A DNA stretch of 64,000 nt from Planctomycetales bacterium. Lineage in GTDB: Bacteria > 4484-113 > JAFGCY01. Location: contig CP060262.1 in NCBI GenBank assembly GCA_022646745.1, forward strand, positions 1,751,149 through 1,815,148, read 5' to 3'. Position 1 is the first letter of the stretch. Each line of letters starts with the position of its first letter. The translations under genes were made by a program, and so were the position numbers. The notes beneath the pieces were generated by a model that saw nothing but the letters and a program-made list of their open reading frames with translations, was not told the DNA's origin and did no database searches. This document shows positions 198 to 12,419 of this stretch, piece after piece.

Positions 198-1537
198 TTC
201 GCCGCTTCACCGGAGCCAGGCGGGGACTGCTGCTGGATACGCAGCTTCGCGCCCTCGAACAGGCTCTCCTTGCCGCGGGTGACAAGCTGGTCACCGGCAC
301 TGAGATTGCCTTCCTCCAGCACCACCAGGCCGTCCACGCGCTCCCCGAGCACCACTGGAATGGTCTCGAAGCCCGGTGGATCCTCACCGCTGGACGGGGC
401 CACACGATAAACAACCTGGCCCATGCGGCTGTCGTAGGCGGCATCCTGGCTGAACAGCAGGCGCGGGGCCGGCTCGGTCAGCAGCAGGCGAGCGCGCACG
501 CTCATGCCGGGCAGCAGGCGCGCTTCGCTGGCAGTGACGCGCAGCGGGAACTGCCGGGTGCTGGGGTCAGCCGCGGCACTGATGCCGGCCACCGTGCCCA
601 GGAACACCTCATCCGGGATCGCATCGGCGCGCAGTTCGACCGCCGTGCCGTTGCCAATCACGTCGCGCTGCTGCTCCGGCAGGCTGAACCAGGCTTCCGC
701 CGGCTCACTGCTGACGAGCTCGGCAAGCGGGCTGCCGGCGTTGACATACTGGCCGACCTCCACCAGCAGCATTGTCACAGAGGCATCGAAATCGGCGGCG
801 ATGCTGCAGCGCTCAACATCAAGCGCGGCCAGCTCCTGCGCCCGGCGGGCGGATTCCACCCGGGCGGCTGCACTGTCAACCTGTTCCTGCCGCGTGCCGG
901 CCAGCAGGCGGTCCAGCACACGCTGTTCCTCTTCAAGCGCGGCCTGCGATTCACGCAGGGCATTGCGCGCCGTCACCAGCTCACTTTCGCTGACGACATT
1001 GCCGGCGCTGAGCTGCTCAAGGCGCGCCAGCCGGTCGGCGGCATCATCACGGCCGGCCTCGGCCTGCTGCACAGCGGCCTGCTGGGCGGCGATGTCCTCC
1101 GGGCGGGAGCCACTGCGGGCCTCAGCCAGCGCCAGCTCGGCCTCGTTCAGGTTTGCCTCCGCAATCGCCAGCCGGGCACGGTACTCACTGTCGTCAATCT
1201 GCACAAGCGCCCGGCCGGCGGACAGGTTGTCACCGACACGCGCGGTGATGCTGTCAATCCGGCCGCTCAGTTCGCTGGCGAGCGTCACCTTCTGCAGCGG
1301 GCGCATCTCGCCGATCAGTTCGATGGCGGGGGCGTAAGCCAGCTCCTGCACAGTCGTTGTCTTCACGTTGACAGGCGGAGGTCCGGATGATGCACCGCCA
1401 CCTCCTCCACCTGAAGAGGGTGCTGGATCCTCATTGCATGCAGTGGCCAGCAGGCAGGCAAGCATTGCCAGTACGGACAGGATTGGCAGCCGGGCATACC
1501 CGGGGGGGCATGCCGGCCGGATGCGTCGCATGCGCAT
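194..1537 (-). CDS. Efflux RND periplasmic adaptor subunit (HlyD/membrane-fusion protein family), probable lipoprotein
   Basis: 495-aa ORF in the track. The likely true start is MRMRRIRPAC... (ATG 1535-1537), followed by a hydrophobic signal (LAMLACLLATAC). Coiled-coil hairpin and beta-barrel/lipoyl-like segments are typical of membrane-fusion proteins. It lies immediately upstream of the RND pump. Confidence 0.75.
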   Translation of the reverse strand: MRMRRIRPACPPGYARLPILSVLAMLACLLATACNEDPAPSSGGGGGGASSGPPPVNVKTTTVQELAYAPAIELIGEMRPLQKVTLASELSGRIDSITARVGDNLSAGRALVQIDDSEYRARLAIAEANLNEAELALAEARSGSRPEDIAAQQAAVQQAEAGRDDAADRLARLEQLSAGNVVSESELVTARNALRESQAALEEEQRVLDRLLAGTRQEQVDSAAARVESARRAQELAALDVERCSIAADFDASVTMLLVEVGQYVNAGSPLAELVSSEPAEAWFSLPEQQRDVIGNGTAVELRADAIPDEVFLGTVAGISAAADPSTRQFPLRVTASEARLLPGMSVRARLLLTEPAPRLLFSQDAAYDSRMGQVVYRVAPSSGEDPPGFETIPVVLGERVDGLVVLEEGNLSAGDQLVTRGKESLFEGAKLRIQQQSPPGSGEAAK

Positions 1538-6478: not shown

Positions 6479-8029
6479 ATGACAGGAAAGGAGCTGGCCT
6501 CCTATTACCGGGCTGCGGTAGAGTACATCGACCCGCGGCTGCGGGATGACTGTCCCGTCGAGGACATCTGTGCCGCCGCCAAGGCGCGCCAGCATGCGCT
6601 GCGCGCACATGACAGCGACACCGCCCGCCTGGAGCTCGAGAAGATTGAGGAGGCCCTGCAGTTCATCCAGCGTGTGCACCCGGATGTGGTCGATATCTGC
6701 CGGGAGCAGGTGACTGCGGAATATGCCGCAGAAGTTGAACCAGCGTTGGATCTTGCGCATATTGCCCAGTCTGAACCGGAAGTGCAGGATGCCAGCCAGC
6801 TGGTCGCGGATTTCCATGCGGAGGAAGCAATACAGCCTGCCGTGGAAACCGACGAGGCCTCCCTAGTTGACAACTCCGTTGCCGCGCCGGCTGAACGCGA
6901 TGACTACGCCGGTGTGCTGCTGAGCGGCACGACTGCGGATCCCGCGGAAGACGAAATGGTCGAGCTCGTGCTCGGTTCCGGCAGCCATTTCGAGGCGGCA
7001 GTGGAATCCGCAACTGAACTGGAGACAGCAACGGCGGATGAACCGGAACCGGAAGCCATCAGTATTGATTTCGCCGCTGAGCCGCAGGTCATCCAGCCGG
7101 AATCCGTGCTGGAAATTGACGACGCGATTGCTTCCAGTATTGACAACGAAGCTGAAGCAGAATCAGGCGATGCCGGCAGCGAGCTGGCCGCCGCCATGGC
7201 TGCCTCGCGTGAGCATGTGGAAGTGCCGAGCCGCCACCAGTTCATCGCTGAACTGCGAGAGCGCCGCCTCAGCAGCCAGCATGAACTGGCCGCAGAGGAA
7301 GCCGAGCAGGTCATTTCCGAACTGCGTGAGGAGCAGCACAGCGAGGAGCGCGTCAGCGAGCTGATCAGCCGCGTGCCTGATGTCAGTGAACGCATGGAAC
7401 AGGAGCTGCAGCAGGAAGAGCAGACCAGCCGCCCGCTGGACTTCCGCAGCCTGATGTCACGCGCCGGTGCCAACCCGTCGCTGAAGGTCCGCCCAGCCAG
7501 CCGTCCGCGCCTGAAGACCGAGGAAATCCTCGGGCGGGAGAGGCCGGCGCGCCGGATCCCGGAGGAACACGCTGCTCCGATCCTGCTTGGGATGCTCATG
7601 ATCCTGTGGCAATTCAGTGCTGCGCTGCTGGCCGGATTTGCGCTCAGCCGTGCACTGGTCTGGCATTTCGGCACAGCCTTCTCATCCATGACCCCAATCA
7701 AGGCATTATTCACCTGCCTGGTAGGCCTCGGTACGGCCGCCCTGATCGGCGCCGGATTCCGCTATTACCGCCTGCGCAGCCACCGGCTGTCCCTGCCGGT
7801 GCACGTCAGTGCGCTGTCCATCGTGATGCTGCTGCTGTCCTGGCAGTTCAGCGCGAATGCCAACGCCTATGCCAGCGGCCCGCCGTTATGGCTGTGGTGC
7901 ATGCTGTTCGCCGCCTGGCTGGTTGCCACAATCGCCGCCGGACTGCACGACCTGCGTGTGCCGCCTGTCTCTCGTGATCCGGAATCGGAAGTGGTAGCTG
8001 CCAAGCCTGCGGTACCGCTTGCCAACTGA
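6479..8029 (+). CDS. Acidic (E/A/D-rich) protein with C-terminal multi-TM anchor, hypothetical
   Basis: 516-aa ORF. The N-terminal ~350 aa are highly acidic and low-complexity. The C-terminal ~150 aa contain 3-4 hydrophobic helices (ILLGMLMILWQFSAALLAGFAL..., ALFTCLVGLGTAALIGAGF..., LSIVMLLLSWQF..., LWLWCMLFAAWLVATIAAGL). Confidence 0.6.
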   Translation: MTGKELASYYRAAVEYIDPRLRDDCPVEDICAAAKARQHALRAHDSDTARLELEKIEEALQFIQRVHPDVVDICREQVTAEYAAEVEPALDLAHIAQSEPEVQDASQLVADFHAEEAIQPAVETDEASLVDNSVAAPAERDDYAGVLLSGTTADPAEDEMVELVLGSGSHFEAAVESATELETATADEPEPEAISIDFAAEPQVIQPESVLEIDDAIASSIDNEAEAESGDAGSELAAAMAASREHVEVPSRHQFIAELRERRLSSQHELAAEEAEQVISELREEQHSEERVSELISRVPDVSERMEQELQQEEQTSRPLDFRSLMSRAGANPSLKVRPASRPRLKTEEILGRERPARRIPEEHAAPILLGMLMILWQFSAALLAGFALSRALVWHFGTAFSSMTPIKALFTCLVGLGTAALIGAGFRYYRLRSHRLSLPVHVSALSIVMLLLSWQFSANANAYASGPPLWLWCMLFAAWLVATIAAGLHDLRVPPVSRDPESEVVAAKPAVPLAN

Positions 8030-8526
8030 GATTTCCACCGATTCAACTGAGATATTCCGAAAATTCTCGAAATTTCTTTAGCCCTGTCCAGCACAGGGCT
8101 CAACGCATTCCGGTGCGGTGATTTTGCAGGATTTCGTTGCCATTTGGGGAACAAAGCAGCCAGGCTGCTCGTCTATCTGCCCGTGATGGGGTTCCTCCCC
8201 AGTCACGGAAAACAGAGTCGGATTGCCAAGTTATGCAACCGTATAGGAGGCAATGGATGACGGAGAAGGATGATAAGCCGCGAGAACCGCGCATGCTGCC
8301 AGGGAGCACTGGCAGCGACCGTGATCCGGGATGCGTCCCGTTGACACGGTACCCGGGCTGTACCAGCCAGGCCACACGCACCGACGGCCTGTAGCGACCA
8401 CGGACTGCAGCCCTGACCTGATTCACTGAACCACGGCCGTGCGTGCACGGCAAGCCACGGGCTCAGTGCATCCCATACCAAGCTTTGCAGCGGCGCTGCC
8501 GACTGTGGCCGCCGCGAGGAGGAAAC

Positions 8527-8610
8527 ATGCTGGTCATGCTCGCATTGATACTGACAACGCTCTGGGTCCTGGCAATGCTGCCTGGGACCGTGCCACAGAC
8601 ACGCTTCTGA
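8527..8610 (+). CDS. Candidate 27-aa hydrophobic micro-peptide (MLVMLALILTTLWVLAMLPGTVPQTRF)
   Basis: Near-consensus SD GAGGAGGAAAC sits immediately before the ATG. A single TM-like helix. Not in the ORF track because of its length. Confidence 0.25.
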   Translation: MLVMLALILTTLWVLAMLPGTVPQTRF

Positions 8611-8699
8611 TCCGGGACCACCGGGCAGGCACAGGAATCTCATTCATCCGGTGGCTGGATCACCGGAACAGGGACCGGTTTGGTCCACGGGAGGAAACA

Positions 8700-9116
8700 A
8701 TGTACTACCTTGACAACAACAACAATGACAACATCAACAGCTGGCAGAACCATGGCCTCGACAATGAGGACCGTGACGGCGCGCAGTTCGGAGAGGACGT
8801 GCGCTACAGCATTGACAACGGGCAGGAGAGCCTGGAGTCAGCCTGGAAGTCACGGATGGCCGAGATCGACGGCTACATCACCCAGTTCATGCATGAGGCC
8901 GATGAGCTCTCCGAGGAGATGATCGATGACCTCAGCCACAACTTCAGCGAGTGGTGGGAGAAGCAGCCGATGTCCGACAAGGTCCGTGCCGAGTGGCAGA
9001 AGGCCAGGGCAGACGGCAAGGTGGTGCGGGCCCGCATGGAGCAGCGCCTGACGCACCTGGTTGAGGATGGCAAGCTCAAGTGGAAGGAATGGACCCGCCG
9101 CAACGGCGCCGGATAG
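8700..9116 (+). CDS. Small soluble protein, paralog A of a 3-member family (138 aa)
   Basis: RBS GGGAGGAAACA before ATG 8700. The C-terminal region (RAEWQKARADGKVVRARMEQRLTHLVEDGKLKW) aligns with the proteins at 9763 and 10131. Confidence 0.6.
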   Translation: MYYLDNNNNDNINSWQNHGLDNEDRDGAQFGEDVRYSIDNGQESLESAWKSRMAEIDGYITQFMHEADELSEEMIDDLSHNFSEWWEKQPMSDKVRAEWQKARADGKVVRARMEQRLTHLVEDGKLKWKEWTRRNGAG

Positions 9117-9186
9117 GCGACCCCGCGCAGCATCCACTGACAAGCACTGACTGGGCGGCCGCCGTGCGACCGCCGGGAGAAATCCA

Positions 9187-9339
9187 ATGCTTTACACCAT
9201 CGCCGTAATCCTGATCATCCTCTGGCTGCTGGGACTCGTCGGGTTCCCGACCATCGGAGGCTTCATCCACATCCTGCTGGTGATCGCAATCATCATGATC
9301 CTCGTGAACATCATCAGTGGACGCCGCGCGATCCTCTAG
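9187..9339 (+). CDS. lmo0937-family micro-membrane protein (50 aa), copy 1
   Basis: MLYTIAVILIILWLLGLVGFPTIGGFIHILLVIAIIMILVNIISGRRAIL with RBS GGGAGA. Matches the widespread ~50-aa lmo0937-type two-helix peptide pattern (…ILWLLG…HILLVIAI…GRR). Confidence 0.7.
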   Translation: MLYTIAVILIILWLLGLVGFPTIGGFIHILLVIAIIMILVNIISGRRAIL

Positions 9340-9494
9340 GAACACCACTGCATTCCATCCTGTGCGGGAGGTGCCCACGGCCTGGTGGCCCCTCCCCCCA
9401 ATGATGCCAACGAACTACACCATCCGGTCCCGCTGCCCTGCAGCGGGGCCGGGAATAAACCAAACCAACCTGTCCGGTTGAAGTGAGGAGAACA

Positions 9495-9644
9495 ATGCTT
9501 TACACCATCGCCGTAATCCTGATCGTCCTGTGGCTGCTCGGATTCGTGGGATTCCACGTACTTGGCAACTTCATCCACATCCTGCTGGTGATTGCGATCA
9601 TCATGATCCTCGTGAACATCATCAGCGGCCGCAGGCCACTTTAG
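9495..9644 (+). CDS. lmo0937-family micro-membrane protein (49 aa), copy 2 (tandem duplicate)
   Basis: MLYTIAVILIVLWLLGFVGFHVLGNFIHILLVIAIIMILVNIISGRRPL with RBS GTGAGGAG. Identical to copy 1 except a 6-residue central loop and the last 2 aa. Confidence 0.7.
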   Translation: MLYTIAVILIVLWLLGFVGFHVLGNFIHILLVIAIIMILVNIISGRRPL

Positions 9645-9762
9645 GCAGTGGAATCGGGAACTTTTCCCGGCCTCCCTTCGTCTGTAAACTCGCAGGGGGC
9701 CGTGGGTGGACCCCTGCGAGTTGTCAGACTGCCACGGCACACTGCCGGATTCGGAGGCAAGT

Positions 9763-10083
9763 ATGACCATCAGAGAACAAAGCACCAGCGCCCAGGGCTG
9801 GCAGCGCGAATGGGAAGAGCGGACGGACCACATCGACACCCTTATCATGCGCTATACACGCCGCTGCGGTGAGCTGACATCCGACCGCGTGCAGCGCCTG
9901 ACCGACGAGCTCCGGCTCTGGTTTGACCAGGAAGTGCCCCACATCAACTACGACCCCGACTGGCAGCGCACGAAGTGCGATCCGCATTGCCTGCAGCAGC
10001 TGCTTGCCGGGCGCCTCAGCCACCTGCTGGCGGACAACCGCCTGTATATCTCGGTTGTCGAGGCCCCGGTTGTTGAGGAGTAG
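9763..10083 (+). CDS. Small soluble protein, paralog B (107 aa)
   Basis: RBS GGAGG 5 nt before ATG 9763. The W..W…ID and C-terminal RLSHLLADNRL motifs align with paralogs A and C. Confidence 0.6.
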   Translation: MTIREQSTSAQGWQREWEERTDHIDTLIMRYTRRCGELTSDRVQRLTDELRLWFDQEVPHINYDPDWQRTKCDPHCLQQLLAGRLSHLLADNRLYISVVEAPVVEE

Positions 10084-10130
10084 GCACAGGCTCCGGTTAT
10101 CCGTGCGGACACGCGGATGGGAGGCAAGCC

Positions 10131-10454
10131 ATGAATGTTGATTACCAGACTGAGACGGAGCAGTTCGGGGCCTGGGAGGCCGCCTGGAGCAAGCACTGTC
10201 CGGAGATCGACCGGCGCATCGTCCGCTTCATGGAGGACAGCCCAAGCTTCAGCCCCGAATCGCTGGCTATCCTGACCAGTGAGATCAGTGACTGGCTGGA
10301 TACGCGCCAGATCAACGGGGAAGCCTGGGTGGAGTGGCGCCGGATCAGGCTTGAGCCGGACTGGCTGCGGGCTCGCGTCGAGCAGCGCATTGCGCATCTC
10401 GTGGCGGACGGCAGCCTCAGGCTCAACATCTGGCGCGAGGGCTGGCACTACTAG
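10131..10454 (+). CDS. Small soluble protein, paralog C (107 aa)
   Basis: RBS GGGAGG before the ATG. The C-terminal RARVEQRIAHLVADGSLRL is nearly identical to the paralog A motif. Confidence 0.65.
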   Translation: MNVDYQTETEQFGAWEAAWSKHCPEIDRRIVRFMEDSPSFSPESLAILTSEISDWLDTRQINGEAWVEWRRIRLEPDWLRARVEQRIAHLVADGSLRLNIWREGWHY

Positions 10455-10515
10455 CCCTCTGTCCGCTGGGGTCCGCAGCAGCCGGATTTGAATTCAGCGC
10501 GCATTCTGGGCGATA

Positions 10516-11328
10516 ATGTTTCACGTGCTGAGGTTGAGATGTATCTACACAGGTATGCTGCTGGCGCTGCTGCAGCTTGGTGCTGCGCAGGCCCAGACGC
10601 ATGACCTGAATGAACTGTCCTGCAAGTCCTACCTGATCTTCGACCTGCAGAGTGAACGCATCGTGGCCCAGGGCAACCCGGACCGCAGCCAGCCGATTGC
10701 TTCCATCACGAAGCTGATGACGAGCATCCTGGCGGCCGAACGCCTGCGCTTCGATGGCCGCTACATCCTGACCGCGGAGGAACAGAAGACCTTCCACTGT
10801 GAGACGATGCGTGGGCAGAAGATGCTGGAGATGATGCTGATCCCGAGCAACAACAAGATGTGCAGCGTGGTGGCACGCATCATCAGCGGCTCCGACGACG
10901 CCTTCGTGAAGGAAATGAATGCCAAGGCGCAGCAGCTCGGGATGTACAACACACGTTTCGCGACCCCGAGCGGCCTGCCGCGGGACGGGCAGTACTCCAC
11001 GATGGAGGACGTGCTGCTGATGACCCGCGTGGCGCTGACCTACCCGCGAATCCGTGATGCGATGACCCGTGAAACGGTTGAACTCAACGGCGAGGTCTAC
11101 TCCGGTACCCTGCGCGACCTGTATGGCCGCCATCCGGGACTGATCGGTGGCAAGACCGGCTACACCAATGCGGCCGGGCGCTGCCTGACCCTGTGGTACC
11201 GCAGCGGCGGGCGCGACTACATCGTGATCACCCTGTGCAGCAAGGGCAGCAAGTCTAGCTTCCGCGACGCCGAGATCCTGCTGAGCAACTTCGGCCTGTG
11301 GGACGGCGAGGTCGGTGCCTGGGAATGA
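10516..11328 (+). CDS. D-alanyl-D-alanine carboxypeptidase (S11, low-molecular-weight PBP)
   Basis: Signal peptide, SxxK (SITKLMT), SxN (SNN) and KTG motifs in the canonical order and spacing. Confidence 0.8.
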   Translation: MFHVLRLRCIYTGMLLALLQLGAAQAQTHDLNELSCKSYLIFDLQSERIVAQGNPDRSQPIASITKLMTSILAAERLRFDGRYILTAEEQKTFHCETMRGQKMLEMMLIPSNNKMCSVVARIISGSDDAFVKEMNAKAQQLGMYNTRFATPSGLPRDGQYSTMEDVLLMTRVALTYPRIRDAMTRETVELNGEVYSGTLRDLYGRHPGLIGGKTGYTNAAGRCLTLWYRSGGRDYIVITLCSKGSKSSFRDAEILLSNFGLWDGEVGAWE

Positions 11329-12419
11329 CGCGCTGCCTGCCGCTCCTGCTGCTGGCGCTGGTGCTCTGTGCATCATGTGAACAGCTGCAGCGCGCGGCGA
11401 ACAAGCCCGGCGGCGTATTCGGGCCATCCGAGAAGGTGCTGCGGGAGTACCATGACTCGCGCTGGCAGGCCGTTGTCAATGCGGTGGCAGAGGGCAGTGA
11501 TGAAGTCGTGCTGCCGGATGAACCGGAAGTGCCGAAGGCACTGGAGAAGCTGAACCTCGAGCAGGGCTACCAGGCGCTGGCTGCCAACCGCACTTCCGAA
11601 GAGCTGAGCTGGCAGGCCCTGATAGAGCAGAGTGACCTCAGCATGCGCTTCTCGGCGGAGGTGCTGGACGTGCTGGAGCGCAATGACGCGGACAGCATCA
11701 GCCAGATCGTGCCGCAGATTGACGACTATGCCTCGCAGCAGGAGACGGCGATGTCCGACTGGCGCGCACTGCGCAGCCAGCTGCGCGGCAGCCTGGACTC
11801 CCTGCAGCAGGACTGGGACAGTGCCTGGCCGGACAACGAGTTCGACTTTGACCTGCTGGCCCAGGTGGAGCGCATCCAGGCGGACCAGCTCGGGCGGCTC
11901 AGCCCGGAACGGATCGCTGCGCTGACACACTACCATGACAACGAATTCTCACGGCTGGCAACGGACTACCTGGAGTATGAACCGGCGGAAGCTGAGGAGA
12001 TCAGCGCCGTGGCGCATGTGCCGGCGGACTGCGAGGGCATCAGTGATGCCACGCGCCGGCTGGAGGCCGCGCTGATCGTGCGCCATGCGCTGGACAGCGC
12101 GATCGTGCGTGACCGCGAGCTGGTGGAGAGCTACGTGCCGGGCGTGCTGGGCAAGGGCCCGATCAGCAATGTGAGCATCCCGGACACGCGCTACGGCAGC
12201 CACCGCGCGCGGCTGGCCGTTGCCAGGCTGGAGCTGTACAGCATGCTCGACGGGCTGGTGACGGATGTGCTGGACGTGATGATCTACGATGTCAACCGGG
12301 AGTGGACGCTGGCCTGGCCGGGCAATGAGCTGGAGAACAACATCTTCGCCTATGCCGGGGTGCAGCAGACGGTGCCGCGGCTGGAGGACCCCTACGAGGC
12401 CCCGGCGTCCAAGCCCTGA
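11325..12419 (+). CDS. Hypothetical lipoprotein (364 aa)
   Basis: MTRCLPLLLLALVLCASC lipobox start. The ATG overlaps the dac stop (ATGA). Acidic soluble domain. Confidence 0.6.
   Translation: MTRCLPLLLLALVLCASCEQLQRAANKPGGVFGPSEKVLREYHDSRWQAVVNAVAEGSDEVVLPDEPEVPKALEKLNLEQGYQALAANRTSEELSWQALIEQSDLSMRFSAEVLDVLERNDADSISQIVPQIDDYASQQETAMSDWRALRSQLRGSLDSLQQDWDSAWPDNEFDFDLLAQVERIQADQLGRLSPERIAALTHYHDNEFSRLATDYLEYEPAEAEEISAVAHVPADCEGISDATRRLEAALIVRHALDSAIVRDRELVESYVPGVLGKGPISNVSIPDTRYGSHRARLAVARLELYSMLDGLVTDVLDVMIYDVNREWTLAWPGNELENNIFAYAGVQQTVPRLEDPYEAPASKP

Follow-up and report, generated by a model that had tools for sequence, protein, structure and literature searches.

The window analysed here, a 64,000-nucleotide (nt) stretch of a Planctomycetales bacterium genome (contig CP060262.1), carries two neighbouring genes, L1 and L2, that encode membrane proteins of 50 and 49 residues. 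The two are likely to be an old pair of the lmo0937/DUF5670 family, in which the near-identity of the helices reflects constraint acting on the helices throughout the family, together with gene conversion between the copies, the loop of L2 evolves under relaxed constraint, and the products would act as stress- or envelope-associated micro-proteins. An earlier reading of the same DNA, made from the sequence alone and called the original prediction below, had taken the combination of matching helices and differing loops as a sign of selection on the loop or of a recent duplication.

The gene pair and its family

L1 (9187..9339, plus strand) starts with ATG and encodes the 50-residue protein MLYTIAVILIILWLLGLVGFPTIGGFIHILLVIAIIMILVNIISGRRAIL, with the loop GFPTIGG; its paralogue L2 (9495..9644, plus strand), also with an ATG start, encodes the 49-residue protein MLYTIAVILIVLWLLGFVGFHVLGNFIHILLVIAIIMILVNIISGRRPL, with the loop GFHVLGN. 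The two open reading frames (ORFs) are 155 nt apart, and inspection of the sequence confirmed that the original prediction had placed them correctly. It had also assigned each its own Shine-Dalgarno (SD) site, and these are present: GGGAG at 9175..9179 (plus strand), 7 nt 5′ of the ATG of L1, and GAGGAG at 9485..9490 (plus strand), 4 nt 5′ of the ATG of L2. The block GCGACCGCCGGGAGAAAT around the SD site of L1 is kept in the related loci L101, L094 and L100, and the orthologues of L2 have a purine-rich SD site at the equivalent position. The start given for L2 by the ORF-listing program, an upstream GTG at 9483, falls within the SD site of L2.

The proteins agree at 41 of 49 residues (83.7%). 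The statement that they are identical except for the loop and the tail is nearly right; besides P21H, T22V, I23L, G25N and the residues after R47, L2 differs from L1 by I11V in helix 1 and by L17F at the edge of the loop. Similarity at the DNA level is limited to the coding sequence, from ∼4 nt 5′ of the ATG to about codon 46, and neither the flanks nor the spacer contain sequence that can be aligned between the copies.

The proposed assignment to the lmo0937 family was checked with profile hidden Markov models (HMMs) and holds for both copies, which score at about twice the curated cut-offs. With NCBIfam model NF033488 (lmo0937 family), L1 and L2 reach 62.9 and 65.0 bits (cut-off 30) and match end to end, residues 2–45 covering model positions 1–43 of 43. 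With Pfam model PF18919 (DUF5670), the scores are 55.7 and 56.9 bits (gathering threshold 23.5), and residues 1–44 lie on model positions 1–43 of 43. The E-values of these matches range from 1e-15 to 1e-18. A search of 5.8 billion clusters gave 7,992 of 8,000 candidate sequences that scored at E <= 1e-3, and relatives 65%–85% identical are found in Verrucomicrobiota, Planctomycetota, Ignavibacteria, Acidobacteriota, Beta- and Gammaproteobacteria, and other groups. The best match in a search of genome contigs was 77%–80% identical and came from Verrucomicrobiota metagenome-assembled genomes (MAGs). Among bacterial proteins of 50 residues or fewer, lmo0937/DUF5670 is one of the common annotations (sORFdb preprint).

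The UPF0391/YtjA family (NCBIfam NF010227, PRK13682) likewise consists of proteins of ∼50 residues with two hydrophobic segments, and one close homologue of the pair carries the JGI label "YtjA (UPF0391 family)." Residues 5–47 of L2 align to positions 8–51 of the 52 in that model (E = 2.9e-5), but membership was rejected, since L1 scores 14.4 and L2 24.1 bits, far under the cut-off of 73. UPF0391/YtjA is at most a distant relative and not the same family. A Pfam search at E <= 1 returned no family other than DUF5670 for either protein.

An exact-sequence look-up showed that both genes are already annotated as neighbours in public assemblies, where they carry PF18919. In GenBank, both are named "lmo0937 family membrane protein" (L1, MCB1221548.1/UNM09797.1; L2, MCB1221549.1/UNM09798.1) in a "Planctomycetales bacterium" MAG. 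The pair is already known and consists of ordinary, annotated lmo0937-family genes. That it had been missed by the ORF track is true of the 60-residue cut-off of that track, which conceals genes that standard annotation already calls, and does not extend to the public assemblies.

The coding status of the two genes is also evident in their variation. Across 11 related copies, the variable sites at sense codon positions 1, 2 and 3 stand at 13:5:35 (7:2:27 in the helices alone), and the GC content by codon position is 0.52/0.30/0.86 in L1 and 0.53/0.24/0.82 in L2. The two antisense ORFs at 9076..9378 and 9336..9848 (minus strand) are the only ones of at least 60 residues over the region, and one antisense frame is free of stops in several relatives, as expected opposite codons rich in ATC, CTG and GTG; their extents nevertheless differ in every related genome, the locus L098 has stops in all three antisense frames inside both L genes, and with the curated HMM matches and the third-position variation all on the sense strand, the chance that the true genes are the antisense ORFs, with the small sense ORFs arising by accident, is negligible. 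As the original prediction held, the antisense ORFs are spurious, and L1 and L2 are real genes, best regarded as separately translated.

An alignment of 79 homologues from several phyla has 22 invariant columns of ∼49 (M1–A6, L9, W13–G16, G24, F26, H28, L30, L31, A34, M37, L39, N41, G45 and R46), and all 22 residues are present in L1 and L2, whereas the turn columns 19, 21 and 23 are among the most variable of the family (entropy 1.3–1.7 bits). Identical helices are therefore a trait of the family as a whole, and the "precise conservation of both helices" that had been attributed to the pair is not peculiar to it. With the family, L1 and L2 also share their length (49–50 residues) and the full-length HMM match. 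They differ from it in the turn, which is usually (T/S)-S-(Y/T)-T-x-G-G in the family and GF-x-x-x-G(G/N) in this pair. T22 occurs in 113 of 118 homologues and G25 in 117 of 118; L2 has neither. Judged from these alignments, two features of the pair are real peculiarities: both copies have a lineage-specific "GF" at positions 19–20, and L2 has lost T22 and G25. The setting of the pair is unusual as well. A second copy within 4 kb is found at only four of 80 representative loci of the family, with loops that are nearly identical, whereas the loops of the window pair have diverged. None of these 80 loci has genes of the A family, among which L1 and L2 are embedded (see below).

Age of the duplication and gene conversion

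The same order of genes (M42 peptidase, a gene of ∼520 codons, A1, L1, L2, A2, A3 and S11 peptidase) is found in L101, L094, L100 and L098. L101 is the closest relative of the window, and L094 and L100 form a sister pair. A more distant syntenic outgroup, L097, has a single L gene with the loop GFPVIGN and a single A gene. Since the pair and the order are common to these four loci, and the divergence of L orthologues at synonymous sites (dS) between lineages is 0.36–0.76, the tandem duplication is old and had taken place before at least four lineages separated. That one (A-L) module was simply duplicated was considered and rejected, as this would not yield the order A1-L1-L2-A2-A3.

Gene conversion between the copies is well supported in L101 by sequence comparison. 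There, L1 and L2 are identical over nt 1–94, loop included, and all seven differences between them lie within the last 44 nt (p ∼3e-4), whereas the two loops of each other genome are separated by 10–13 differences in 27 nt. Both copies carry the L2-type loop GFSAIGN, one nucleotide from the L2 loop of L094 and L100. L1 of L101 retains its own 3′ end and flanks, which points to conversion rather than gene loss.

The signal in the window is similar in kind. L1 and L2 differ at 3 of 48 nt in helix 1, at 13 of 27 nt in the loop and at 4 of 63 nt in helix 2; the proportion of synonymous differences (pS) rises from 0.21 in the helices to 0.77 in the loop (Fisher p = 0.018), an increase that protein-level selection cannot explain. 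In the helices, dS between the window paralogues is 0.25, below the range of the orthologues and below the 0.66 between the paralogues of L098. These values are suggestive of patchy conversion in the window lineage that did not cross the loop. Conversion would thus have homogenised the helix-coding segments in the window genome and left the loop segment alone, while in L101 the tract would have run through the loop. Together with very strong purifying selection on the helices throughout the family, such conversion probably accounts for their identity. In the other close pairs found in the family (L022, L038, L047 and L090), the copies hardly differ, and no pair has more than one difference in the loop.

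Concerted evolution of bacterial paralogues by gene conversion is familiar from tufA/tufB and from rRNA operons. L1 and L2 resemble these in that paralogues within a genome are closer than orthologues over part of their length, with mosaic tract boundaries; they differ in size, since genes of just 150 nt leave room for no more than very short tracts and, in the window, for little statistical power. Genes of 150 nt can evidently undergo mosaic conversion and, given such conversion, identical ends around a different middle are by themselves poor evidence of selection.

Two metagenome contigs from different samples, L103 and L104, have a single L gene (735..887 in each) between A1 and A2. This gene is chimeric: its 5′ flank is that of L1, and its 3′ end and the sequence after it are those of L2. 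Either recombination across the identical stretch of 94 nt would have deleted the intervening DNA, or the two copies would have been collapsed in assembly.

Constraint on the loops was compared among the orthologues. The L1 copies of the window, L094, L100 and L098 all encode the loop GFPTIGG, although codons 17–25 differ at 5–7 nucleotides. The nonsynonymous divergence (dN) of this loop is zero against L094 and L100 and 0.11–0.14 where L098 is involved, with dS of 0.57–1.27. The L1 loop is thus under purifying selection, with the family-like constraint on T22 and G25 kept after duplication. The L2 loop reads GF(H/S/G)(V/A)(L/I)GN in the orthologues, N25 being fixed in all; dN is 0.19–0.41 and dS 0.54–1.0, which gives dN/dS of ∼0.3–0.4, compared with ∼0.1 in the helices. 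It evolves faster, under relaxed constraint, with N25 kept. Positive selection on the loop was rejected, as dN/dS is below 1 in every comparison. The comparison of loop and helices suggested with the original prediction therefore does show a faster L2 loop, but never a ratio above 1. The proposed selection on the loop survives to the extent that L1 keeps its loop in four lineages and L2 its N25, and fails in that there is no positive selection and L101 has lost the L1-type loop. Together, the copies and their homologues form a natural experiment on tolerance, in which the helices, G24, F26, H28 and N41 never change and the turn at 19–23 and, unusually, position 25 can.

The retention of GFPTIGG and of N25 and the departure of L2 from the near-invariant T22 and G25 could also be read as specialisation of the paralogues through a periplasm-facing turn, with selection maintaining two loop types and removing conversion tracts that cross the loop; that the conversion-like homogeneity of the window ends at the loop would fit this. 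In L101, though, both copies have the L2-type loop, so a close relative can do without the L1 type. Residues 21–23 of L2 vary freely at a dN/dS indicating relaxed constraint, the loop of the single-copy outgroup L097 is mixed, and the L103 and L104 contigs make do with one chimeric copy, which could be an assembly artefact. Specialisation is possible on these grounds, but we consider it doubtful.

A recent tandem duplication followed by rapid change focused on the loop, as the original prediction also envisaged, would account for the high identity of the helix-coding DNA. It is scarcely credible against the presence of the same pair, with both loop types and the same neighbours, in four other genomes at the orthologue divergence given above. 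The copies, moreover, share no alignable spacer or flanks, and synonymous divergence in the loop is saturated. The old pair, subject to helix constraint and conversion, remains the preferred reading.

Topology and proposed function

Hydropathy in L1 and L2 peaks at residues 8–10 and 32–37 with a dip at 22, glycine and proline cluster at residues 16–25, and the only charged residues are R46 and R47. The most likely arrangement predicted from the sequence is two helices of ∼19 residues (∼2–20 and 26–44) joined by a Gly/Pro-rich turn, with both termini inside and the loop on the outer side of the membrane, an orientation that follows from the C-terminal Arg-Arg being the sole charges. Searched as a profile against the PDB, the family alignment found no solved relative at E <= 10.

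The Listeria prototype of the family, lmo0937, is dependent on sigma-B and PrfA and shows induction during infection, and the small RNA Rli51 binds to its mRNA (PMC3225968, PMC7690807, PMC11394854). A literature search for "DUF5670" returned no paper, and one for "YtjA" nothing relevant. In a census of neighbouring genes (115 ORFs from 80 genomes), BON, glycine-zipper, OmpA, DUF883, DUF3185, CsbD, YtxH and entericidin families recur, which lends the neighbourhood a weak envelope or general-stress flavour.

L1 and L2 are extremely hydrophobic micro-proteins of ∼50 residues, probably of the inner membrane, and, by association with the Listeria prototype and with the neighbouring families, may be linked to stress or to the envelope. 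They probably form homo- or hetero-oligomers through the invariant polar intramembrane residues W13, H28 and N41. The two copies may be largely redundant and serve dosage, with a possible difference at the periplasm-facing turn.

Several observations weigh against this account of a constrained, converted and largely redundant pair. The two loop types, with G25 or N25, have persisted for a long time in four lineages, which fits some functional difference and not pure redundancy. The conversion signal in the window depends on few sites (7 differences versus 14–18 in 111 nt, p = 0.03–0.17). AlphaFold2, supplied with the 79-sequence alignment, models L1 as one continuous helix from residue 2 to 49 at a predicted local distance difference test score (pLDDT) of 88.8, so that modelling does not confirm the hairpin. 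The neighbour census is itself weak, as no family occurs among more than four of the 115 neighbours and the ORF calling was crude.

Neighbouring genes and spacer hairpins

Three paralogous genes flank the pair, all on the plus strand. A1 (8700..9116) encodes an orphan helical protein of 138 residues, and A2 (9763..10083) and A3 (10131..10454) encode paralogues of 106 and 107 residues. A1 matches A2 in BLASTP at E = 3e-10 and A3 in tblastn at E = 1.5e-16 with 34% identity; mutual identity among the three is 23%–34%. A2 is kept in L101, L094, L100 and L098, and A3 has orthologues in all the related loci. In the AlphaFold2 model of A1 (pLDDT 69), the N-terminus is disordered and residues 45–122 form a helical core; a Foldseek search with this model against the PDB found nothing below E = 4.9. 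The family is rare, with 51 representative clusters among 1.84 billion proteins. An A gene adjoins a "GF-loop" DUF5670 gene also in L097, L105 and L106, the last in a different context, beside a TerC gene.

Upstream of A1 lies L0 (8527..8610, plus strand), a 27-residue ORF with a single helix (MLVMLALILTTLWVLAMLPGTVPQTRF) and an SD site, GAGGAGG, upstream. It resembles helix 1 of L1 and L2, giving a weak tblastn match to residues 1–18 of L1 (8/18, 44% identity). L0 and its SD site are kept in L101, L094 and L100, where the variable sites are distributed 5:2:11 by codon position, a coding-like pattern; the ORF is not among the genes listed for GCA_020440665.1. Neither Pfam nor NCBIfam has a model that matches L0, A1, A2 or A3. 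The resulting order, L0-A1-L1-L2-A2-A3, is specific to the lineage.

This arrangement raises the speculative and rather unlikely possibility of an undescribed module in which "GF-loop" DUF5670 micro-proteins work with the rare, multi-copy, soluble helical A family of ∼105 residues. The fast-evolving L2 loop would then be a variable contact surface, shuffled by conversion between L1 and L2 and contacting, for example, an envelope partner or an external agent. Bearing on this, the stretch that holds the cluster is more diverged from L101 than its upstream flank and adjoins a block of complete identity that appears recombinant. Whatever its meaning, the A-L association is a testable lead to a partner protein in the clade and, with the L0 micro-ORF, makes up the residual value of the locus.

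The spacers contain three hairpins on the plus strand. A GC-rich stem-loop at 9366..9396 (GGGAGGUGCC...GGCCCCUCCC), 27 nt 3′ of the L1 stop, has no U-tract; its sequence is kept in orthologues, and its folding energy alone (−19.6 kcal/mol, z = −0.9) is not significant. Also in the L1-L2 spacer, 42 nt 5′ of the ATG of L2, a hairpin of 13 bp at 9424..9452 folds at −29.1 kcal/mol (z = −5.6; none of 200 shuffled sequences was as stable), and its pairing is kept through double changes in L094, L100 and L098. The third, at 9687..9722, begins 43 nt 3′ of the L2 stop and is followed by GUUGUC; it folds at −28.7 kcal/mol (z = −4.7, single-sequence fold) and shows compensatory double changes relative to L101 at 9692/9717, 9693/9716 and 9695/9714. 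L094, L100 and L098 have a hairpin at the same site 3′ of L2 with a different stem sequence. RNAalifold missed the hairpin in the L2-A2 spacer because the MAFFT alignment placed its arms out of register, and single-sequence folds and the comparison with L101 were used instead. The hairpins at 9424..9452 and 9687..9722 both lack a U-tract and were not picked up in the terminator scan; they are putative terminator-like or 3′-stabilising elements that may bound L1 and L2 as separate units.

Small size, extreme hydrophobicity, tandem repetition and conserved spacer hairpins are also what would be expected if L1 and L2 were type I toxin-like peptides, as in hok, ldr and ibs, with spacers that encode or bind antisense RNA antitoxins. 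The hok/sok, ldr/rdl and ibs/sib loci share the small hydrophobic ORFs, the tandem repeats and the structured intergenic RNA. Type I toxins, however, evolve fast and are narrowly distributed, whereas this family is conserved at 65%–85% identity across many phyla, and its genes lack a second copy within 4 kb at 76 of the 80 representative loci. An Rfam scan of 8000..11000 at E <= 1 found no riboswitch or small RNA family and only one chance match, to mir-11. A sigma-70 scan of 8300..10300, to which the promoters of this phylum may not conform, gave one weak match on the sense strand, inside L1, and none on the minus strand, so that the antisense RNA family and promoter of the known systems have no counterpart found here. 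With the Listeria prototype behaving as a member of a stress regulon, a toxin role is quite improbable.

Two further features were noted in the alignment of the window with L101. The sequences are 100% identical over ∼10100–12100, 79%–91% identical over 9100..10100 (L1, L2 and A2) and 79%–95% identical upstream; this sharp boundary near 10100 indicates recent homologous recombination between diverged lineages. At 6700..6900, inside a 516-residue ORF (6479..8029), nucleotide identity falls to ∼51% within surroundings of 92%–99%. The product of this ORF has an acidic, low-complexity middle and hydrophobic segments at the C-terminus.

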